Shown: positions 17,720-44,712 of the stretch, piece after piece | How the letters are laid out: every line of letters starts with the position of its first letter | How positions within the stretch are numbered: position 1 is the first letter of the stretch | Notes under the pieces: model-generated | The model's input: only the letters and a program-made list of their open reading frames with translations | Told to the model about the DNA's origin: nothing | Database searches by the model: none | IMG/VR virus record: IMGVR_UViG_3300042009_000023 | Location: 1-64,000 of that record | Source: a virus | Lineage: Duplodnaviria > Caudoviricetes | Reading direction: 5' to 3' (one strand) | Length of the DNA stretch: 64,000 nt | Program-made: the position numbers and the translations under genes

Positions 17720-19081
17720 TTGATCTATGAATTAAGTAACATGACAGAACATCAGACTTACTCTGTTAACCTTGGGTGTGTAAGAAGCTATATCTATTAC
17801 CATGAATCTAAATACTATAAGAAGATAGTAGATCAAGTGATGGAGCATACCAACTATAAATGGGAAGATGCAGTGAGATGGTGGGTGTCTAACTCTGCTC
17901 GTGCTGTCAAGAAGAATGCTAAAGGCATTGTCTTCAGTCTTGACATGCATGCGTACACTAAGTCAAAGCAAGGTATTGGATACAGGAAAGTTAAATCTCT
18001 TGTTGACTTCCTTGAATCTAAGGGTTATATTGATCTTTATAAAGGCTATGTAAAGTCTTGGAAGATGAATAAGGGAGTTCTGGTTCCAGATGAATCTGTG
18101 CCTTCGTGTATGATATTTAAAAAGAGGACAGAAGAGATGTGGATGAGTGTTAATACGTCCTACAATCTATGGAGAGAGCTTGAAGATAACGATCTAGCTA
18201 TCATCCGTGATCGTGAAACAAAAGAAATGATGCCTACACGAGGTCATAAAGGATTTAAAGATATTAAGAGTGAGGTTAAGAGTATGAATGATATGTTGGC
18301 TGGTGCAGCAATCACTTTTGATGGTCGTCCGATTGCTGATGTTGCATACCGTCGAATCTTTAGTGGTGATCTGGAAAGTGGTGGTCGTCTCTACACACTA
18401 GGTGGTGGTGTTCAGCTACTACCCCAACACATCAGAGCATCTTCTTTAAGGATTGATGGTGAACCAGTTGTGGAATTGGATTACTCATCTATCCACCCAA
18501 GTATCTGCTACCAGATGATGTATAATACAGATGGGTTTAGTATCTTTGACGTAATGGGAGAAGATTTCTCTCCCTACGGTGCAGACCTTTCATTCATCAA
18601 GGTTGATGGTCGTATGAAAGAACAATGGGAGTCTGTTACAGGTAAGGTTCATAATCCTGTACGTCAGTTAGCTAAGTTAGCTATTCTAATCGGTATGAAT
18701 TCTAATGACAAGAATAGTGCAGCTTGGACATTAGGCAATAAAGTCAAGATTGATCGTGCTCAGAATAGTATTGAAGATCAAGAGTTTTACGCAATGGTCG
18801 GTAATATTGATTATTCATCTGTACTTGAAGCTGTACAAAGCCATAATGATTTCATTGCAGAGCACTTCTTTTCAGATGCCGGTATCACGCTACAAAACAT
18901 TGACAGTAAGATTATGATGCGTATTGTTGGTGCAATGGGGGCTAAGGGACATACCGTATTAGCTTATCACGATAGTTGTTTGGTTAAAGCTTCTGCTGAA
19001 GATGATTTGCGAGAAGCTATGTTTAGCGCGTGGAAAACCGTATTAGGTGATACAACATTTTGTAAGGTGGATAAGAAATAA
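17720..19081 (+). CDS. divergent PolA/T7-RNAP-superfamily polymerase-like protein
   Basis: RRIF.....GGRLY, ELDYSSIHP (motif A-like), RQLAKLAI (motif B-like), LQNIDSKI and AYHDS (motif C-like); much shorter than T7 RNAP. Confidence 0.6.
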   Translation: MIYELSNMTEHQTYSVNLGCVRSYIYYHESKYYKKIVDQVMEHTNYKWEDAVRWWVSNSARAVKKNAKGIVFSLDMHAYTKSKQGIGYRKVKSLVDFLESKGYIDLYKGYVKSWKMNKGVLVPDESVPSCMIFKKRTEEMWMSVNTSYNLWRELEDNDLAIIRDRETKEMMPTRGHKGFKDIKSEVKSMNDMLAGAAITFDGRPIADVAYRRIFSGDLESGGRLYTLGGGVQLLPQHIRASSLRIDGEPVVELDYSSIHPSICYQMMYNTDGFSIFDVMGEDFSPYGADLSFIKVDGRMKEQWESVTGKVHNPVRQLAKLAILIGMNSNDKNSAAWTLGNKVKIDRAQNSIEDQEFYAMVGNIDYSSVLEAVQSHNDFIAEHFFSDAGITLQNIDSKIMMRIVGAMGAKGHTVLAYHDSCLVKASAEDDLREAMFSAWKTVLGDTTFCKVDKK

Positions 19082-19100
19082 TATTTATTTTCTTCCTCTA

Positions 19101-19130
19101 TTGACAAACAGCAACTAACTAGTTCATACT
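19101..19130 (+). promoter_or_regulatory. sigma70-type promoter
   Basis: TTGACA-18 nt-CATACT. Confidence 0.55.
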
Positions 19131-19189
19131 AGATTTTCAACTTAAGGAATCAAGAGAGGATTCCTAATAAATAATTTAGGAATCCAATC

Positions 19190-19399
19190 ATGAGCACACG
19201 GTGTAAAGCTTGTAACTCAAGCCTCAGTAAATTTGATTTTACAGTTAATAAAAGCGACACACTACCAGAGCCCGAAGACCTTTGTTCAGTATGTCGTGGA
19301 GTTTCATATAATGATGAATACATGGTTGTCCGAGAATACCAGCATGAGTATTTGACAGAGAATTGGGTTAATTTCGCATTGTATGAAGAAAACAGTTGA
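19190..19399 (+). CDS. small zinc-finger protein
   Basis: CKAC...CSVC pairs. Confidence 0.65.
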   Translation: MSTRCKACNSSLSKFDFTVNKSDTLPEPEDLCSVCRGVSYNDEYMVVREYQHEYLTENWVNFALYEENS

Positions 19400-19424
19400 A
19401 TTGTATACAATACTAGTGTATAAT
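19396..19424 (+). promoter_or_regulatory. strong sigma70 promoter for the tRNA/ncRNA region
   Basis: TTGAAT-17 nt-TATAAT; no ORF follows for about 490 nt. Confidence 0.75.
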
Positions 19425-19574
19425 TATCACATAGCCATGCTCAGTATGGTTTTGGATTAAAAGATGTTCGGCCTTTGAGCACCTAAAAATAGGATGACGA
19501 TCCTTAAAGTCTTCGTAGAATTAAACACGCCTCTTAACAATGCTCAAATCTGTTTACACGGAGCAATGAATTTA

Positions 19575-19648
19575 GCCCTTATAGTATAGTGATATTACAG
19601 TAGATTTGTAACCTACATACGTTGGTTTGATTCCATCTAGGGGCACCA
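19575..19648 (+). tRNA. tRNA-Thr(UGU) with non-canonical features
   Basis: Acceptor stem GCCCTTA/TAGGGGC plus ACCA; anticodon loop TT-TGT-AA; T loop TTTGATT. Confidence 0.8.
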
Positions 19649-19657
19649 GTTTCACCC

Positions 19658-19894
19658 GACATCATCCAAGTCTAAATTCTTTTAAGATTGATGTCTTCTC
19701 CCGCTGTCTTTTCTCTCCTCTTCTCGACAGCAACTTAAGACCGTCCATTCCCTCTCCTGTGGACTGGTCTTGTGACCTTGATAGCGTGTAACGTACCTCT
19801 CCTTACGGTATAGGCTTAGTACAAGGTCAATTCTTAATCATTTTGTTATCCATTGATATTATTGCAAGTAGTCTTGCCAGAATGATTAAGAATT
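19658..19894 (+). ncRNA. candidate multi-hairpin RNA with three CTCTCCT loop motifs
   Basis: Five consecutive stem-loops; CTCTCCT at 19713, 19752 and 19797, each inside a hairpin. Confidence 0.55.
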
Positions 19895-19909
19895 CATTAT
19901 TTTAAATAG

Positions 19910-20341
19910 GTGCATACAATGGCTACCAAAAAACCTCAGACTCCAGCCCAGAAGGCAACCCGCTTCGACGGTGAAAAATCTAATAGAAACAAATCTGGTA
20001 ATTCCAGTACTCGCATCAATAAAAGTAAAATCAGTAAACTCCTTGACCAGCTCATGGAGCGTAAAGAACTCGCATTTGAAATCATTGATGACATCCTTGC
20101 AAATAAGGGTGATCGCACAGCAGACCAAAAGTCTACAGCTCAGTGGTTGGTAAACAGCATTGTTTCGGTAAGTAAAGCATGTACAGCTGAAGAACTTGGA
20201 TCTTTCAACGCCCGTCTTAAAGGGAAAAGGGATGATGAGCCCGAAGAACAAACTCCGGCTGAGATTGCTAAAGAGTTTAAGCCACGTTTGGTTCTAACTT
20301 ATAAAGATCCAAATGCTGTTCCAGAAGATGAAGATGAGTAA
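19910..20341 (+). CDS. probable terminase small subunit
   Basis: RFDGEKSNRNKSGN N-terminal motif, helical middle and acidic tail; first sizeable gene upstream of the terL block. Probable start is ATG 19919. Confidence 0.5.
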   Translation: MHTMATKKPQTPAQKATRFDGEKSNRNKSGNSSTRINKSKISKLLDQLMERKELAFEIIDDILANKGDRTADQKSTAQWLVNSIVSVSKACTAEELGSFNARLKGKRDDEPEEQTPAEIAKEFKPRLVLTYKDPNAVPEDEDE

Positions 20342-20399
20342 CAAGAAACCTGCACGAAATCACTACTGCTGATAGCGTGTTGAATTTATGTTATTGGAA

Positions 20400-20812
20400 A
20401 GAATTTGAGGTTGGATAGTAGGTCCGTATTAATTGTTAGCTTACGTTACTTATTACCAAATCCTCAAACCTAACGTATGCCTCGGCCTGCGTATCTGAGA
20501 ACTTTGCCTAGTTCATTCAGAAAGCTAATCTGGCGGTTAGCTGCAATATCTTATGTCTGCGTAAGAAACAGACCGGTTGACCCTCGTTACTGTGTCGTGT
20601 GGTGAAGCCCTTTGAAATCTTTGCAGAGGGAGAGCTTAGTTTCCGGGTAGCGTGGGAGAACTAACACCTATTTTATACACAATTATATTTCTTAGTACAA
20701 TAGAAATTGATTGAGCTGAGTGGTACGAATTACCTACCACGTATACAATTTCCCTTTGTAACAATAACAATAAGGTTCTTCTAATGAAAGAGCCATCTCT
20801 TTAAAGGGAGAT
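20400..20812 (+). ncRNA. ORF-free, densely structured region (candidate ncRNA or long 5' leader)
   Basis: At least eight inverted repeats, for example TTTGAGG..CCTCAAA, TCTGA-GAACT..AGTTC-TCAGA, AGCTAA..TTAGCT, GTCTG..CAGAC, CCCTTTG..CAGAGGG, GTGGTA..TACCAC. Confidence 0.45.
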
Positions 20813-20818
20813 AGCAAT

Positions 20819-23093: not shown

Positions 23094-24605
23094 ATGGCTC
23101 GCATTAGAAAAATTTTAGATCTAATTGGTACTCGCGTTGGTAGGTTGGTCGTAGTTAATGCGGCTCCAGATAGGGTCCGTGTAAGAAAAGATAGCTCTAA
23201 TTCTATAAGAGCTTATTGGAACTGCTTGTGCGACTGTGGAAATTCCATTGAAGTAAGGCAGGATGCTATCCTATCTGCAAAAAGCAATAGCTGTGGATGT
23301 CTTCGTGATGAACGAGCTAAGACAAACATTAAGGCGGCACTAGCTAACTATAAGCCAAAACCAGCTCAGGACTTGACTGGTAAGAAGTTCGGAAGACTTA
23401 CTGCAATCAATGAAGCGGAGAGAAGTGTAACTCCAAAAGGTAGAACACTAATCCGTTGGAATTGTTTATGTACTTGCGGAGTAGTTAGAGATTATCAATC
23501 GGACCAATTGCGTGCAGGCAAGTCAACATCTTGTGGGTGCATTCTTCCAGAATTTGTAAACTCTCTTTTCAACTCACAAGGTGAGATTTTTAAATACAAA
23601 GCTTCTTTAGTTCACGGGGATAAATATGATTATCAACTGGTTGAGTATAAGCACAGCCAAGAAGATATCTATATTGTTTGCAGAGACCACGGGAGCTTTA
23701 GACAAAATCCATCCAACCATTTACAAGGTCACGGATGCCCCCGTTGTTCTGGTGTGAGGGGTAATGACTACGATTTAACTTTGACGAAGTTAATTTGTGA
23801 TATCCACCAAGAGGAATTCTACTCCAGCTCAAAATGTAGTAAATGCATAGAAGCAAAGTTGGAATATGAGAATAAGAGTTTTGCTGAAAAGGCAATAGAA
23901 GTACACGGATTAAAATACGATTACAGTAATAGTGTATTTACTGGATACTGTAGTGATATTACAATTCTGTGCCATGAACATGGGGAATTTACACAGAAAG
24001 CAAATTTGCACCTCAATGGGAATAATTGCCTAAAATGTAGTATTGAAGACCGCAAACTTGGATACGATGGTTTTGTAGAAAAATCTGTATTAAAACATGG
24101 AGACAGGTATGACTATTCTAAAGCTGTTTATAGCCATATAAATATACCTGTTGAAATAATTTGTGCCTCTCATGGATCATTTTGGCAAAAACCTAGTGTA
24201 CATTTTAATGGATCTAATTGTCCAAAATGTTCAATAGAAGTTAGGTCAGAAAAACAACATTGGAATTATCTTGAAAGGTGTAGATTAAACCCTGAAATGG
24301 GAGAAGCTATTGGGTGCATTTACTTATTAAAAATGACTCATGAAGACGAATCTTTTCTTAAGCTAGGTATCAGCTCTAGTCATAAAAAGAGATTAGCCAG
24401 ATACCGAGAAGAAAATATTGATTTTGAAGTTATCACACTAAAAGAGATGAAAAACGTAGCGGCAGCTATACTCGAAAGAGATATATTAGCAGCTATTAAA
24501 CAGGCCGGACTTAAATACCTACCTCAAGTTGAGTTTAAAGGTTATACCGAGTGTTCGACACTAGAAGCCGAGGACTTTATTTTAGAAAGGATTTATGATG
24601 GCTGA
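23094..24605 (+). CDS. large modular homing-endonuclease-like protein (CxCxCG repeats, DUF723-like repeats, C-terminal GIY-YIG-like domain)
   Basis: 2x GRL...WNCLC.CG...SCGC; 3x HG.KYDY...C..HG.F.Q....H..G..C..C; then CIYLLK...FLKLGIS...RLARY. Confidence 0.7.
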   Translation: MARIRKILDLIGTRVGRLVVVNAAPDRVRVRKDSSNSIRAYWNCLCDCGNSIEVRQDAILSAKSNSCGCLRDERAKTNIKAALANYKPKPAQDLTGKKFGRLTAINEAERSVTPKGRTLIRWNCLCTCGVVRDYQSDQLRAGKSTSCGCILPEFVNSLFNSQGEIFKYKASLVHGDKYDYQLVEYKHSQEDIYIVCRDHGSFRQNPSNHLQGHGCPRCSGVRGNDYDLTLTKLICDIHQEEFYSSSKCSKCIEAKLEYENKSFAEKAIEVHGLKYDYSNSVFTGYCSDITILCHEHGEFTQKANLHLNGNNCLKCSIEDRKLGYDGFVEKSVLKHGDRYDYSKAVYSHINIPVEIICASHGSFWQKPSVHFNGSNCPKCSIEVRSEKQHWNYLERCRLNPEMGEAIGCIYLLKMTHEDESFLKLGISSSHKKRLARYREENIDFEVITLKEMKNVAAAILERDILAAIKQAGLKYLPQVEFKGYTECSTLEAEDFILERIYDG

Positions 24606-26031
24606 AGAAAAAGGAAAATCCCTGCCGGGGCCGATTAGTGAACGTCAACATATGTACGTCACAGCCCCGGTGGACGTGACCCTCTATGGCGGGGCAGCAG
24701 GTTCTGGTAAATCGGAAATCGGCGTAATTGATTTCTTGAAGTATACAGACATTCCAAATTTTATTGGGGTAATGACCAGACGGAATACCCCACAGCTCAC
24801 CGGCCCCGGTGGCCTACTAACTAAGTGTAAGCGGATATTTGCTCAAGCATATGGTCCTGATGAATTCACTTGGAGAGCGAAGGACGGAAAGTTTTTGTTC
24901 CACAAGAGCGGAGCTGAAATTTATTTAAAACACTTTGAAAATGATCAAAGTGATGTCTCATGGCAAGGTGCCGAGGCAAATCTTTTCTACGTAGACGAAG
25001 GTACGCAGTTCACACAACACATGATCCAATACATCATGTCTCGTATGCGTAACCCATCTTGCCCAGAAGTAAAACCCCACCTAAAGATTACTTGCAACCC
25101 AGACGCAGATCATTTTTTGAGGAAATGGGTAGAGCCTTACTTGCATGAAGATGGTACTCCAGATCGAAGTAGGGATGGTGTTGTAAGATATTTCTCCTTC
25201 CAAGATGGTGACTTTGTTTGGGGAGACTCGATTGAGGCTCTTGTTGAGAACCACGGTATAGCGGAAGAGGATGCTCTGTCATTCACTTTTATTAGTGCTA
25301 ACGTAGATGATAATCCAATTGTAAAGCGAGTTAACCCAAAGTATGTTTCGTGGCTTAAGGGTCTCAAAGGCACTGAAAAAGCCAGATTGCTTTTTGGGAA
25401 CTGGTATGTACGAGATTCTGGTAGCGGGTTCTTCAAGCGCGACTGGCTGATCCCGGTGAAAATGTTTGAACAAGAGATTGTATCCCGTTGTAGGGCGTGG
25501 GATATCGCTGGCACTATGCCATCAGATGCTAACCCAAATCCTGACGCCACTTGCGGAGTTTTAATTGCTAAGACTAAACAAGGGCAATACATCATTGAAG
25601 ATGTTATAAAATTTAGGGCTCGGTATGGTGAGGTTATGAAGACTATCATCAAGACAGCTCAGACAGATCCAGAAGAGACTCAGATTATACTACCTCAAGA
25701 GCCCGGTCAAGCCGGAATTGCAGCCGGTAAGATGATGATCAAAGAGTTGATTGAGGAAGGTTTTAGCGCCCGCATGAGACCAACTAACAAATCTAAGGTG
25801 GTTCGTTTTCAGCCTTTTGCTGCTGCTGCTGAAGCTGGTCTTGTTTCTTATGTTGAAGGTCCGTGGAACGAAGCTTATTTCCATGAGCTAGAGGCTTTTG
25901 ATGGTAGTCGTAATGTAAAAGATGACCAAGTGGATAGTACTTCGGACTCTTTCATAACCTTAGCCCAGAAACTCAATATCCCTCTATTCTCCATGCCCAG
26001 CATGACAAAATCCAACGAATTCAGCTTTTAA
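24598..26031 (+). CDS. terL: terminase large subunit
   Basis: YGGAAGSGKS (Walker A), FYVDEGT (Walker B), RAWDIA and DDQVD nuclease motifs. Confidence 0.95.
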   Translation: MAEEKGKSLPGPISERQHMYVTAPVDVTLYGGAAGSGKSEIGVIDFLKYTDIPNFIGVMTRRNTPQLTGPGGLLTKCKRIFAQAYGPDEFTWRAKDGKFLFHKSGAEIYLKHFENDQSDVSWQGAEANLFYVDEGTQFTQHMIQYIMSRMRNPSCPEVKPHLKITCNPDADHFLRKWVEPYLHEDGTPDRSRDGVVRYFSFQDGDFVWGDSIEALVENHGIAEEDALSFTFISANVDDNPIVKRVNPKYVSWLKGLKGTEKARLLFGNWYVRDSGSGFFKRDWLIPVKMFEQEIVSRCRAWDIAGTMPSDANPNPDATCGVLIAKTKQGQYIIEDVIKFRARYGEVMKTIIKTAQTDPEETQIILPQEPGQAGIAAGKMMIKELIEEGFSARMRPTNKSKVVRFQPFAAAAEAGLVSYVEGPWNEAYFHELEAFDGSRNVKDDQVDSTSDSFITLAQKLNIPLFSMPSMTKSNEFSF

Positions 26032-28998: not shown

Positions 28999-29397
28999 AT
29001 GGCTGCAATTGACACTCGCTCTACTCGCCTCGGCGCTGTACTGCAATATGAAGAACATCCAGAATACGGCTACTGCCGCAAGGTTGTTACCGTTACCGAA
29101 GCTTCGGAAGTTGTGTATGAAATCGGTCGCGTAATTGGCGATGATCTCGACACCTTCCAAGATACTGATAACTTTGTTGGTATTTACATCGGTAGCCCTA
29201 CTGGCGACAACAAGCAAACTATCGCTGCTGCAACCGCAACTGATGTAGTTGTTCTGTTCCGTGGCCCGGCTGGTGTAGGTAAAGCAAATCTGGTCTTTGG
29301 TTCAACTGTAAACGACGCACCAAAGCTTGCTACTGCACATGCTGCAATCGAAGCTGCTGGTATTCAGCTGATTGACCAACCTGAACAATTCGCGTAA
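28999..29397 (+). CDS. head decoration protein
   Basis: Immediately upstream of the major capsid gene; VVVLFRGPA motif. Confidence 0.7.
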   Translation: MAAIDTRSTRLGAVLQYEEHPEYGYCRKVVTVTEASEVVYEIGRVIGDDLDTFQDTDNFVGIYIGSPTGDNKQTIAAATATDVVVLFRGPAGVGKANLVFGSTVNDAPKLATAHAAIEAAGIQLIDQPEQFA

Positions 29398-29410
29398 GGA
29401 ATAATAAATA

Positions 29411-30454
29411 ATGGCAACTGTTCGCAGCTATGGTAATGGCTTTCAACTTACCGAATGGACCGAAGAAATCAACAACATCGACAATCAAGCTGGTTTGATT
29501 GGCGGTATGAATCTGTTCCGTACTCAGGGTACTTCGCAAACTGCTATTGTCTTTGACAAGAGCATGAACGACACCACTCTGCTCCCACAAGTATCCCGTC
29601 GCAGCCGTGAGACCACTAAAGGCAATGACCGTCAAGTAGAGACTTTCTCTCTGCCTTTGGCTTACTTCAAGCACAGCGACTACATCACCCCTGAAGATAT
29701 TCAAGGCTGGCGTATGCCGGGCACCCCAGACGCTCCTGAGCAACTGGCCCGTGTTCGTGTACAAAAACTCACCGACATGAAAGCCCAAGTAGAGCAATCG
29801 CTTGAGTACATGAAGCTTCAAGCAGCTAAAGGGATCATGAAGACCCCAGACGGTGCTGTAATTGCCAACATGTTCACCGAGTTTGGTGTTACTCAGGAAG
29901 TGATTGACTTTGATCTTGGTGATGCAACTACCGATATCAACGCTAAAATCTCCCAACTGAAGCGCTTTCTGCAAACCAACCTGAAAACTGGTTCCGCTAT
30001 TGGTGGTGGTATTCGTGTTGTTGTAGATGGTAGCTTCTTCGACAAACTGGTTAGTCACCCACAGATTCGCCAAGCCTATCTGTACTACTCTTCGCAAGTA
30101 GAGATTAACCGTAACAGCACCAACCAGTTCATGGCTTGGGGCTCTGTTGATCAGTTCACCTACAAAGGTGTTACTTTCATCACTTACGATCACATCTTTA
30201 AACTGCCTAACGATACCACCGAAGTAGCCGTTGCTGCTGACACTGGCCACGTGATCCCAGTTGTGAATGATCTGTTCCGTGGTTACTACGGCCCAAGCAA
30301 CAAGCTTGGTGGTGCAAACAGCGTAGGTCGTGAAATGTTCGCCTATGAGTTCACCGATCCTAAAGACGAGTTCCACGAAATGCAAGTTGAGACTTCTCCT
30401 CTGTACTTCGTAACTCAGCCACAAGTACTGGTGAAATTGATTTCTTCGACTTAA
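29411..30454 (+). CDS. major capsid protein (lambda gpE-like)
   Basis: 347 aa, strong codon bias, position, terminal ETSPL...QPQVLVK motif. Confidence 0.9.
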   Translation: MATVRSYGNGFQLTEWTEEINNIDNQAGLIGGMNLFRTQGTSQTAIVFDKSMNDTTLLPQVSRRSRETTKGNDRQVETFSLPLAYFKHSDYITPEDIQGWRMPGTPDAPEQLARVRVQKLTDMKAQVEQSLEYMKLQAAKGIMKTPDGAVIANMFTEFGVTQEVIDFDLGDATTDINAKISQLKRFLQTNLKTGSAIGGGIRVVVDGSFFDKLVSHPQIRQAYLYYSSQVEINRNSTNQFMAWGSVDQFTYKGVTFITYDHIFKLPNDTTEVAVAADTGHVIPVVNDLFRGYYGPSNKLGGANSVGREMFAYEFTDPKDEFHEMQVETSPLYFVTQPQVLVKLISST

Positions 30455-35191: not shown

Positions 35192-36766
35192 ATGGCAGAT
35201 GCTCTGCTTGGCAACTATTCTCCAGAATCAGTTGTTGTTGTATTAAGTAAAGGCGACTTCTTACACACAATTCAAGGTTATGCTGATGGCACTTTCCTGA
35301 ATATTAGCCGTATTACCCCAGCCTCCGAACTTTATGTCGGAAGTGACTTGTCAGCCGGGAGGGTTAAACGTCGTAATAAAGCTTCAACCATTGCACTAAC
35401 ACTCCATCAGTTCAGTCCATCAAACTCTGTACTGCAAGCCCTTCAGCGAGCAGATGAAGAAGACGATTCAGACCGTTGGGTGGTAGCTATGACAATCAAG
35501 GATAACAGCGGCACAACCCTGTTCTCCAGTAATCAGGCTTTTATTGCAACTATTCCAGATACAAGCCTCTCAAGCACTACTGAAACTCGTGACTGGACAT
35601 TCCAAGCGGTTAGCCTCAACTCCAATGTTGGTAGTAATACCCGCTTTGACCAAGCTGAAGTTGCAGCAATGGAAGCTCTTGGTGCTGAAGTACCTACTCG
35701 TTGGCAGTTGTAAGTAATAATATTGAGGGTAATGAACTTACCCTCTTTCCACCAAGGAATATTAAATGACTCAATTAGCTACTTATATTCCAGAGGAAGT
35801 TAACGTTCTGATTGGTGGGTTGCTTCCAATATCTGGTTTTGTAGATGGAACTTTCTTAGAAGTTCGTAAAGATATTATTCCCTTCACTTCTACCAGAACA
35901 CCAGATGGAACTGTTGCACGACTCTATAATAATGACCAAACCTATACAATTACACTAACGCTTTATAGTGGTAGTGATTCAAATGATGTACTAACTAAAT
36001 TCTGGCAGTTAGATGAGATTACCCAGCGTGGTAAATTTCCTCTCATGATACGTGATTCTAGTGGTAGTGACATGTTCTTCTCAACCACCACATGGATTGA
36101 ATCCCCAGCTTCTATTGTTAAAAGTAATAACTTTGACAGTCGTACTTGGGTGTTAAGATCCTCACAAGCAGTTATCAACATCGGTGGTAACGGGGATGCA
36201 GCTTCTATTCTCGGAAGCTTGGTTAATCTTGCAATCTCAGCAATCCCAACTATTGAGGGTATTATCTAATGGCTAATACCTTTGACGTGAAGACGTATAG
36301 TCCTTCCGAAGTCCAGTTGGTTATTGGTGGGTATCAAGTTACTGGCTGGCAATCAATTAGTATTACCAGATCAGTTAAAGGGTTCACCGTAGTTCGTGGT
36401 ATCCGTGGTAAGAACACTCGTGTACCCAATCGTGATACATCAGCAACACTTACTTTTCCTATTCTTCAGTCCTCACAAAGTAATGATGTATTGTCTTACA
36501 TTCATGAGCTTGACTTAGAAGAAGGGACTGCAAGGATTGCACTAACACTTAAAGACAACTCTGGTCGTTCCGTATTTAACTCCAACGAAGCTTTTATTAT
36601 TGGCTACCCTTCGGCCACCTTCTCTGGACAGTTTGAATATAGAAACTGGGAAATCTTTTGTCAAACAACCGATACGTTCAAGGTTTATGGGAACTCCCGG
36701 CCCAGTACTTCGTTGTTTGACGGTGCTTTGAATGAAGCTACTAGCTTTGTTGAAGGTTTGTTTTAA
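35192..36766 (+). CDS. three paralogous tail-tube-like proteins (35192-35713, 35766-36269, 36269-36766)
   Basis: Shared NYSPESV/TYIPEEV/TYSPSEV starts and S.SN.VL motif. Confidence 0.75.
35725..35750 (+). terminator. terminator after the first tube gene
   Basis: GAGGGTAA-TGAAC-TTACCCTC-TTT. Confidence 0.65.
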
Positions 36767-43821: not shown

Positions 43822-44712
43822 ATGTCTGAGATTTCTCCTTTTGAGATTCAAGATTATCTAGAAGTTGCCCGCTCACGAGTGACGGAGCAGTTCAAAGATA
43901 AACAGGTCTTTGATTTTTATCTCCAACTCCTCCTCGGCGGAAAGATTGAACTTCAAGAAGTCTTCCGTCAACTTATGCAAGAGCGCTCTATTGACACTGC
44001 TGTTGGCGCTCAGTTAGATATTGTTGGTGAGATTGTTGGTCAACCAAGAGAGCTTATTGATACAGCTCTCTTAACATACTTTGCTTATCTTGGTTATCCA
44101 AATGCTCAATCTTTCGGTGACTTGGATAACTCAAGTGTCGGTGGATATTACAGAGGAGTTGATGATCCTCTTGCTGGTAATACACTTTTAAACGATGAGC
44201 AATACAGGCTTTTTATCAAAGCCAAGATTATCAAGAATAATACAAACGCTACACCTAACCAGATACTTGATTTTATTAAGTTCGTATTTGGTAGTGATGT
44301 TAACCAACTCGTTGAAGAAGGTGATGCAGCTTACACTTTGCTTATTGGTAAAGAACTTACTGATTTTGAGAAAGTGCTACTGACGTATGTGAGCTATTCA
44401 AGTGGTTATCCTTCTAGATTTGTTCCAAAACCTATTGGTGTAAGAGTTAATTACGGGACATTTATCTCTGGGGGTGCTTTTGCATTCCAAGGGGTTCCGG
44501 GTGCTAAAGGGTATGGTGATCTTCTCTCAGGTACGTTTGGATATGGCTTAGGTTATGGGATGTCTTACGGTGATAGCGATTATGGGTTGGGTATCCCTAC
44601 TTGGTCTTACACCTATGATGGCTCAACTTTGTATGACGGTATTTTCGATTACATTTCAATCCCCACATATGACGGAAGTTTTGATGGTGGTAGATATGCC
44701 TCTTTGCTCTAA
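43822..44712 (+). CDS. baseplate wedge protein (DUF2612-like) with a YG/YDG-rich tail
   Basis: AVGAQLDIVGEIVG, LNDEQYR.FIKAKI. Confidence 0.75.
   Translation: MSEISPFEIQDYLEVARSRVTEQFKDKQVFDFYLQLLLGGKIELQEVFRQLMQERSIDTAVGAQLDIVGEIVGQPRELIDTALLTYFAYLGYPNAQSFGDLDNSSVGGYYRGVDDPLAGNTLLNDEQYRLFIKAKIIKNNTNATPNQILDFIKFVFGSDVNQLVEEGDAAYTLLIGKELTDFEKVLLTYVSYSSGYPSRFVPKPIGVRVNYGTFISGGAFAFQGVPGAKGYGDLLSGTFGYGLGYGMSYGDSDYGLGIPTWSYTYDGSTLYDGIFDYISIPTYDGSFDGGRYASLL

Follow-up and report, generated by a model that had tools for sequence, protein, structure and literature searches.

A structured non-coding RNA with UCUCC hairpin loops adjoining a tRNA gene in uncultured Felix-O1/PAK_P3-like phages

A five-hairpin RNA at the 3′ end of a tRNA

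The sequence analysed here, hereafter the window, covers the first 64 kb (64,000 nt) of IMGVR_UViG_3300042009_000023, an 89,356-bp IMG/VR sequence of an uncultured soil phage with repeats at its termini, and positions 19649–19893 of its plus strand encode a structured non-coding RNA of ~245 nt that represents a new family. The only tRNA in the window, a tRNA-Thr(UGU) (called by ARAGORN; 55.5 bits with the Rfam tRNA model), ends at the base before this RNA, and no credible open reading frame (ORF) was found between the tRNA CCA and 19893, the next gene being ORF140, named after its length of 140 aa. The segment 19649–19920 (+) had a minimum free energy (MFE) of −82.6 kcal/mol, compared with −47.4±4.2 kcal/mol for dinucleotide shuffles (z = −8.46), and none of the 200 shuffles folded as well. 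The MFE fold of this segment consisted of five top-level hairpins, H1–H5 (Table 1).

An earlier note, written from the letters of the window, had described three consecutive hairpins with CTCTCCT loops (19703–19731, 19737–19771 and 19774–19828) between two further hairpins. The three correspond to H2–H4, with correct coordinates and unpaired loops, and the flanking two are H1 and H5. The word CTCTCCT lies at 19713, 19752 and 19797, once in each of the H2, H3 and H4 loops, whose unpaired probability was ~1.0. On both strands of the whole window it occurs 11 times, with 8.9 copies expected; three copies within 91 nt on one strand thus form a strong local cluster. In the RNA, UCUCCU complements AGGAGA exactly, and the UA that follows the H4 loop CCUCUCCU gives UCCUUA, as found in the 3′ tail of 16S rRNA. 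A 54-aa ORF at 19627–19791 was ruled out as a gene, because the differences in loop length are not multiples of three and the substitutions in the stems are compensatory.

Table 1. Features of the RNA and its immediate surroundings (window coordinates)
Feature	Position	Strand	Remarks
Candidate sigma-70-like promoter, TTGAAT-17-TATAAT	19396–19424	+	~150 nt 5′ of the tRNA; 10/12 consensus positions
tRNA-Thr (anticodon UGU), encoded CCA	19575–19648	+	3′ end abuts the RNA; ARAGORN, Rfam
Single-stranded 5′ leader GUUUCACCC	19649–19657	+	Nearly invariant in homologues, with or without a preceding tRNA
H1, variable outer 7-bp stem, conserved apex AAG-N-AAAUUCU	19658–19695	+	MFE fold, covariation
Single-stranded pyrimidine linker UUCUCCC	19696–19702	+	Possible fourth site; UCUCC not kept in all homologues
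H2, GCUGUC/GACAGC stem, 17-nt all-pyrimidine loop with CUCUCCU	19703–19731	+	MFE fold, covariation
H3, 13-bp stem with one bulge, loop UCCCUCUCCU	19736–19772	+	MFE fold, covariation
H4, long interrupted stem, loop CCUCUCCU	19773–19829	+	MFE fold, covariation
H5, 16-bp A/U-rich basal stem UUCUUAAUCA.../...UGAUUAAGAA, two small apical hairpins	19830–19893	+	Fold, RNAalifold
ORF140, 140 aa, weak Shine–Dalgarno sequence AUAGGU	19919–20341	+	Conserved in relatives; usually starts 16–300 nt after H5

Both the tRNA and the near-consensus promoter reported in the earlier note were present as described. The promoter is a candidate recognised by its match to the consensus; promoter-like sites lie 5′ of the element at comparable positions in four contigs with homologues (L002, L003, L006 and L025), and the stretch between promoter and tRNA is unstructured (z = −0.45). 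RNase E prefers R-N↓W-U-U, the arrow marking the cut. The junction between tRNA and RNA, ..CCA-G↓UUUCAC, fits this preference and may be a site of the RNase E type (A-G↓U-U-U) that separates the two RNAs. At the other end, no intrinsic terminator was called at 19830–19910: the H5 stem is A/U-rich, no U-tract is present and the tails of the homologues have no U run. The basal stem of H5 is perfect, with 16–22 bp, and could be a site for 3′ processing of the RNase III type.

Conservation of the fold and assignment of the strand

Relatives were collected through the ORF140 protein, through a 453-aa protein encoded upstream of the tRNA and by covariance-model searches of whole records. The element was present in 21 further distinct contigs from soil, rhizosphere, freshwater and estuary metagenomes, several of which were complete at 85–92 kb. 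The carriers form a clade of uncultured 85–92-kb Felix-O1/PAK_P3-like phages. Each complete genome held exactly one copy. The order of the hairpins was the same in independent MFE folds of every homologue, and the z-scores of these folds ranged from −4.1 to −11.0, with a median of −7.6 (n=21).

The stems showed strong covariation. With R1, a single-sequence covariance model of H2–H4, 13 homologues were aligned, and 95.9% of the cells in paired columns were standard pairs, compared with 64% after shuffling and 33–42% when the partners were slid by 1–3 columns. Changes on both sides were seen in 36/40 pairs of H2–H4, and the covariation score was 0.718 compared with 0.194 for the controls (0/500 shuffles). 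By hairpin, both sides had changed in 6/6 pairs of the H2 helix (97% paired), in 11/13 pairs of the H3 helices and in 19/21 pairs of the H4 helices. The outer stem of H1 was 94% paired with 5/7 pairs changed on both sides (score 0.625 compared with 0.18; 0/500 shuffles), and H5 had compensatory changes in 11/20 pairs of an RNAalifold consensus on a plain MAFFT alignment of 12 sequences. A MAFFT-only alignment of H1–H4 was poorly registered, RNAalifold recovering H5 alone from it, and was replaced by the covariance-model alignments; these are biased to the structure of the model, and the per-sequence folds and the slid and shuffled controls agree with them. The conservation and covariation across related phages that the earlier note had put forward as a check were thus found.

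The loop words stay constant while the stems drift. Each RNA carries two or three pyrimidine-loop hairpins with loops of 8–19 nt, and the 56 loops are composed of 331 C, 278 U, 12 A and a single G, with an unpaired probability of ~1. CUCC was found in all 56, UCUCC in 52/56 and CUCUCC in 45/56, whereas the canonical anti-Shine–Dalgarno (anti-SD) core CCUCC was found in only 10/56. Sequence conservation extends to the 5′ leader GUUUCACC, to the apex of H1 (AAGAA..AAAUUCU), to the base of H2 (GCUG/CAGC) with the ACUUAAGA that follows it, and to the base of H5 (UUUCUNAA/UUNAGAAA). Three homologues, L036 (8466–8665), L043 (8397–8600) and L044 (9650–9845), have two pyrimidine-loop hairpins instead of three between H1 and H5; the loop hairpin is thus a repeatable module of variable number.

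Two resemblances to known repeat elements were considered and rejected. The leader and the H5 base recall a Type I-F CRISPR repeat (GUUCAC.../...CUAAGAAA), but they stand in different structural contexts and form no repeat hairpin; a ToxI-like array of tandem repeats does not apply, since the hairpins are not direct sequence repeats.

Variation in the surroundings of the RNA was also observed. In a 7.2-kb contig of a close relative from run X2, a public run labelled as a single organism, the equivalent of window 19575–19727 was replaced: the tRNA, H1 and H2 (153 nt) gave way to 76 other letters while H3–H5 and the ORF were kept, and the 5′ half of the locus is thus swapped between strains. Four contigs, L006 (2855–3000), L024, L025 and L029, share a conserved word UAUUUCUCAUGUGUU just after H5, followed by stretches with a T-loop-like GTTCGAAT that ARAGORN did not call as tRNA; these may be degenerate tRNAs or tRNA-like RNAs.

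No catalogued family matched the RNA. A search of both strands of 19000–20400 with all 4227 Rfam families (E ≤ 10) gave the tRNA alone as significant and nothing over 19649–19830, the other rows (abiF, MIR827, plastid untranslated regions and small nucleolar RNAs) lying far under their gathering scores. Comparison of the locus with 50,697 phage records by blastn gave no match, and the models R1 and R2 found no copy in the cultured phages vB_PsaM_M1, phiK7A1 and PAK_P3; a weak model match in phiK7A1 (16.5 bits) was discarded as it folds no better than shuffles (z = −0.73). A pattern scan of 596 Gb of bacterial genomes based on H5, a narrow test, returned 18 A/T-rich palindromic hairpins in unrelated metagenome-assembled genomes, none of them with CU hairpins. 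In the literature, no phage RNA matching this description was found. Taken together, the results strongly support the element as a real family of structured RNAs, so far uncatalogued and carried by uncultured phages.

Three observations place the RNA on the plus strand. First, the helices of a 17-sequence alignment contained 518 Watson–Crick, 61 G·U and 4 A·C cells, and the 61 G·U cells would be C·A mismatches on the minus strand. Secondly, the plus-strand fold was more stable in 13/13 homologues, with a total of −942 compared with −839 kcal/mol. Thirdly, a tRNA CCA is followed immediately by the element in the window and in seven homologues (L006, L025, L030, L036, L038, L040 and L041), and further homologues have tRNA genes within 700 nt upstream. 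Among public RNA data sets, none was listed as containing the locus of the window. Contigs assembled from two wastewater ‘RNA-Seq’ runs, which are probably DNA, covered only the tRNA–H1–H2 part of a relative and carry no strand, end or level information.

These observations bear on two other explanations of the element. The earlier note had offered, as an alternative, an antisense transcript whose hairpin loops would display AGGAGAG and act as an RsmA/CsrA sponge. The reverse complement does fold better than chance (z = −5.43), its loops would hold GGA, and a weak leftward promoter-like match (9/12) lies at 19925–19896. This reading is rejected as very improbable, however, given the excess of G·U over A·C cells, the greater stability of the plus strand in every homologue, the abutment to plus-strand tRNA 3′ ends among neighbouring genes that are all on the plus strand, and the lack of any CsrB or RsmX/Y/Z match on either strand in the Rfam search. 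The other explanation is a DNA-level site for packaging (pac) or replication, in which CTCTCC boxes and inverted repeats would be bound by the neighbouring small basic protein, possibly a small terminase. It draws on the position of the element, which precedes a small basic/acidic ORF and, by a few kilobases, the large terminase gene, and on the possibility that the ‘direct terminal repeat’ of the record reflects circular assembly and does not mark the true genome ends. Yet binding to double-stranded DNA needs no compensatory pairing within a strand of the kind seen in H2–H4, the G·U over A·C asymmetry is a signature of RNA, the distance to ORF140 varies and ORF140 has no terminase signature, so we give such a site hardly any weight.

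Genomic setting, ribosome-binding sites and possible functions

The element heads a plus-strand block of ~32 kb that holds the terminase, portal, capsid and tail genes (hereafter the late block). The large terminase (TerL) is ~50% identical to those of phiK7A1 and PAK_P3-like phages, indicating a distant relative of Pseudomonas phages; at this level of identity, Pseudomonas as the host is only suggested, and genome contigs scanned with the PhaZ-like protein of the phage in a search for the host gave no relative. ORF140 had no match in Pfam, PHROG or PDB and no informative match in the Atlas, and no homologue in cultured phages was found by tblastn. Neither a terminase nor an RNA-binding signature was detected in it, and an earlier ‘small terminase’ (terS) label was not confirmed. 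Its N-terminal half is basic and its tail acidic, and the motif RFxGEKSNRN..GNS..RINKSK is invariant.

The proximity of ORF140 raises the explanation that the element acts in cis, as a leader that would stay on the late or ORF140 mRNA. It could be a 5′ stabiliser once the tRNA has been processed, a pyrimidine-rich, S1-recruiting enhancer of translation, or a Rho-loading or anti-termination element that gates read-through into the late block. An ORF140 homologue (129–143 aa) begins 16–300 nt after H5 in 17/21 homologues and has a weak Shine–Dalgarno (SD) sequence (AUAGGU/AUAGGA; duplex of −3.7 kcal/mol in the window), no intrinsic terminator follows H5, the element stands at the head of the structural-gene block, and its G-free C/U-rich loops hold YC dimers of the kind bound by Rho. 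On the other hand, the RNA is intact where 1–3 kb including large ORFs is inserted before ORF140 (L030, L034/L007, L040 and L046/L014), and it is thus not strictly the 5′ untranslated region of ORF140. In addition, a strict UCUCC is unnecessary for S1 or Rho, both of which are loose in their sequence preference; rut sites are normally unstructured, whereas few parts of the region are as structured as the element; and the leader that runs from the promoter to the tRNA is itself unstructured. We consider a cis-acting leader an unlikely explanation.

Several features of the surrounding genes were observed in addition. The 453-aa protein (17720–19081) lies at the strand-switch point and belongs to phrog_4756 (function not assigned), without a Pfam domain; its homologues, 26–33% identical, occur in Aeromonas, Vibrio, Rheinheimera and Pseudoalteromonas phages and one Pseudomonas phage, and its counterpart in vB_PsaM_M1 (Ounavirinae), 31% identical, is the only one annotated as a ‘DNA polymerase’. 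Between ORF140 and the next gene, a 477-nt ORF-free stretch (20342–20818) folds into many hairpins (MFE −134.8, z = −3.9) and could be a second structured RNA or a leader. A 503-aa HNH/endonuclease-like ORF (23094–24605) shares 11 nt with the start of the large terminase gene (24595–26031) and may be an insertion of the homing-endonuclease type. The whole major capsid gene (29411–30454, plus strand; 347 aa, Phage_cap_E) is spanned by an antisense ORF (29330–30385, minus strand; 351 aa) that is almost certainly not a gene.

The complementarity of the loops to AGGAGA directed attention to the ribosome-binding sites (RBSs) of the phage. Genes were taken from a crude greedy longest-ORF caller and hexamers were scored at −18 to −4. 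The RBSs listed in the earlier note were as it had given them: AGGAGA at the starts 8356, 9395, 9732, 11235 and 11888, AAGGAAT at those of the portal and capsid genes and at 35766, 42371 and 46067, and AAGGAGA at 43822. In this genome, AGGAGA was found in 26/80 minus-strand (non-late) compared with 4/38 late-block RBSs (p=0.012), and AAGGAA in 2/80 compared with 5/38 (p=0.035). Among five complete genomes carrying the RNA, AGGAGA was the commonest RBS hexamer in four and joint-second in the fifth (G001); pooled, it accounted for 127/618 non-late and 7/176 late RBSs (p=1e-8), a depletion of ~5-fold in late genes, whereas GGAGG showed only a mild depletion (70/618 compared with 12/176, p=0.09). 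Among GGAGA sites, it was specifically those of the late block that seldom had the full AGGAGA 6-mer (p=2e-4), and AAGGAA and AGGAAT were enriched in late genes of the pooled set (p=5e-4 and 4e-4).

A similar tendency was seen outside the RBSs. In late-block coding sequence AGGAGA was the rarest of the 20 A3G3 hexamers (11/569), compared with the eighth lowest of 20 in other genes (70/1726; p=0.018 against the late block), and the second rarest in the late block was GAGAGA, the complement of the UCUCUC present in many loops. On the whole sense strand of the late block (~19.9–51.6 kb in the window), AGGAGA was the rarest or near-rarest A3G3 hexamer in G000, G001, G004, G005 and G007, with 19 copies in ~159 kb pooled against a median of ~40, and GAGAGA was the next rarest. 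The coding sequence of the control phages showed no difference for AGGAGA (15/420 late and 46/1298 other). A scan of the control genomes for YCTCC motif clusters was too noisy. Predicted duplexes between loops and translation-initiation regions (TIRs) had medians of −10.7 and −10.1 kcal/mol in the two non-late blocks, compared with −9.0 in the late block (p=0.007), and in non-late genes they were stronger than the SD–anti-SD duplexes by ~2 kcal/mol.

Since the loops are complementary to the commonest RBS of the phage, the RNA probably damps translation, and the reading that we tentatively prefer, although it falls short of even odds, is that of a trans-acting anti-SD-like RNA whose UCUCC(U) loops act against AGGAGA-type RBSs. 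The RNA would be co-transcribed with the tRNA from the sigma-70-type promoter upstream, and released by tRNA 3′-end processing with an RNase E-type cut (A-G↓UUU) and a second cut in or after H5. Its exposed loops would then pair in trans with the GGAGA/AGGAGA SD tracts of mRNAs in competition with the 16S anti-SD, so as to lower the translation of host mRNAs, of the phage's own non-late mRNAs or of both, and the late-block mRNAs, being poor in AGGAGA, would escape. In this role it would be a functional RNA counterpart of the T4 RegB endoribonuclease. A bolder version, which we regard as rather doubtful, makes the RNA a tRNA-linked, multivalent ‘decoy anti-SD’ that works as a genome-wide switch: its loops would outcompete the ribosome at the AGGAGA RBSs of host, early and middle mRNAs, AGGAGA would have been purged from late RBSs and late coding sequence so that late genes continue to be translated, and RBS usage would have co-evolved with the RNA.

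A number of points weigh against repression by pairing. Complementarity of 5–6 nt to an SD sequence is easily found for any pyrimidine-rich loop. The AGGAGA bias is also present in vB_PsaM_M1, phiK7A1 and PAK_P3, in which no copy was found (64/351 compared with 8/107, p=0.006), with an odds ratio of 2.8 in these three cultured relatives compared with 6.2 in the carriers, and late genes of vB_PsaM_M1 are likewise enriched for AAGGAA; the bias thus cannot be credited to the RNA alone, may reflect weaker SD sequences in structural genes, and leaves the early-to-late switch conjectural. Pairing of TIRs with the ordinary 16S anti-SD is likewise better in non-late genes (p=0.02), the excess over this pairing that is specific to the loops is borderline (p=0.055), and the depletion of AGGAGA from late coding sequence is not significant against the late blocks of the control phages (p=0.16). 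The counts themselves come from gene calls that contain errors, for example a capsid gene displaced by the antisense ORF, and from five related genomes that are not independent, and they cover phage genes only. Lacking a Rho-independent terminator and any obvious Hfq module, and usually lying 16–300 nt before one ORF, the RNA would fit a leader as well. Its transcription, ends and abundance, and with them its production, processing and stability, we infer from the DNA. Overall, the RBS evidence agrees with the switch model and gains some strength in the carriers, but it is not diagnostic. The contrast that the earlier note had drawn between early AGGAGA and late AAGGAAT RBSs thus held as a bias, in this genome and in four further genomes with the RNA, and it lost part of its force through the weaker bias of relatives without a detected copy.

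The regularity of the loops also suggests a protein sponge or decoy, in which UCUCC would titrate a host or phage RNA-binding protein in the way that CsrB/RsmZ titrate CsrA. The titrated protein could be one that prefers pyrimidines, for instance ribosomal protein S1, or a protein of the cold-shock or KH-domain type, a nuclease or a sensor of a defence system. The layout, with two or three and in some cases four nearly identical loop words on variable stems, is typical of a multivalent sponge; UCUCC is kept more strictly than pairing to degenerate SD sequences needs, with CCUCC in few of the loops; and the GUUUCACC leader, the H1 apex and the H5 base are conserved without an obvious pairing role. 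Against this, we know of no bacterial protein that recognises UCUCC, ORF140 next door carries no RNA-binding signature, and the avoidance of AGGAGA in late genes is explained by pairing and not by a sponge. We judge titration of a protein to be improbable, at about the level of the cis-acting leader.

Returning to an anti-SD-like RNA acting in trans, the earlier note had proposed such a phage RNA: the conserved plus-strand non-coding RNA at a tRNA 3′ end, with loops complementary to AGGAGA, is borne out, and the pairing and the repression we infer. Virulent phages have so far yielded very few known regulatory RNAs, and the present family comes with a simple falsifiable hypothesis, UCUCC loops against AGGAGA RBSs. 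If true, phages would re-programme translation globally via an RNA mimic of the sequence with which the ribosome docks mRNA, and would shape their own RBS repertoire around this RNA; it would also offer synthetic biology a compact, portable and RBS-selective translational repressor. If a protein is titrated instead, a pyrimidine-loop-binding factor would lie at the phage–host interface.

Comparison with known systems

Repeated anti-SD-like loops are known from the cuckoo/alpha-r14 small RNAs (sRNAs) of Alphaproteobacteria, namely CcsR1–4 of Rhodobacter and NfeR1 of Sinorhizobium, in which several hairpins show a pyrimidine loop word that is thought or has been shown to pair with SD regions, and which are processed out of a longer transcript. 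Their loop word is CCUCCUCCC, a perfect anti-SD core, whereas the phage RNA has UCUCC and seldom CCUCC. Moreover, the cuckoo sRNAs are chromosomal, multi-copy or tandem and linked to DUF1127, whereas the phage RNA is a single-copy, tRNA-linked molecule of 245 nt with five hairpins. Membership of the cuckoo/CcsR group was thus rejected on the absence of an Rfam match, the different loop word and the presence of one copy per genome. Other sRNAs with C-rich loops, such as Xanthomonas sX13, staphylococcal RNAIII/RsaE and Listeria LhrC, contact G-rich SD regions with C/U-rich loops and often lack a classical Hfq module. They are chromosomal and unrelated in sequence, with CCCC/UCCC as loop words, and the phage RNA has no Rfam match to them. 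With CsrB, RsmY and RsmZ the phage RNA shares one short word repeated in the loops of successive hairpins; in those RNAs, however, the word is the protein-binding GGA, which the phage element holds on the minus strand only, and that strand is excluded by the G·U/A·C test.

In position, the closest parallel is with the classic tRNA-linked RNAs of T4, RNAC and RNAD, for which, to our knowledge, no anti-SD idea has been proposed and whose function has been an open matter for fifty years. These are small stable RNAs (band C/D) from the tRNA region of a virulent phage, made together with the tRNAs and expressed late, and their function is still open (PMC3014915, PMC9697503, PMC4933390). The phage RNA is likewise encoded at tRNA genes on the same strand, in the window and seven homologues directly after the CCA, but it has no sequence or structural likeness to them, and the RNAC probe given in PMC9697503 is, by eye, without pyrimidine loops. 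The sRNA1 and sRNA2 of PAK_P3 (PMC4933390) have a similar tRNA context, and no homology to the phage RNA was detected.

In outcome, the proposed function recalls the T4 RegB endoribonuclease, by which SD sequences of the GGAG type, over-represented among early genes, are selectively inactivated (PMC3014915). Whereas RegB is a protein, a nuclease acting together with S1, the agent here would be an RNA that acts by pairing, and no RegB homologue is encoded in the phage genome. The c4 antisense RNA of P1/P7 is also cut from a longer transcript, and its loops pair around the RBS of an mRNA and block translation (PMC12197685). However, c4 has different loops and a specific target in its own operon (ant), whereas the phage RNA would recognise a generic RBS word; neither an Rfam C4 match nor an operon-specific target was identified for it. 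Thus the RNA belongs to none of the known families compared, yet in its proposed action it is like the anti-SD-loop sRNAs and in its position it is like RNAC and RNAD of T4.

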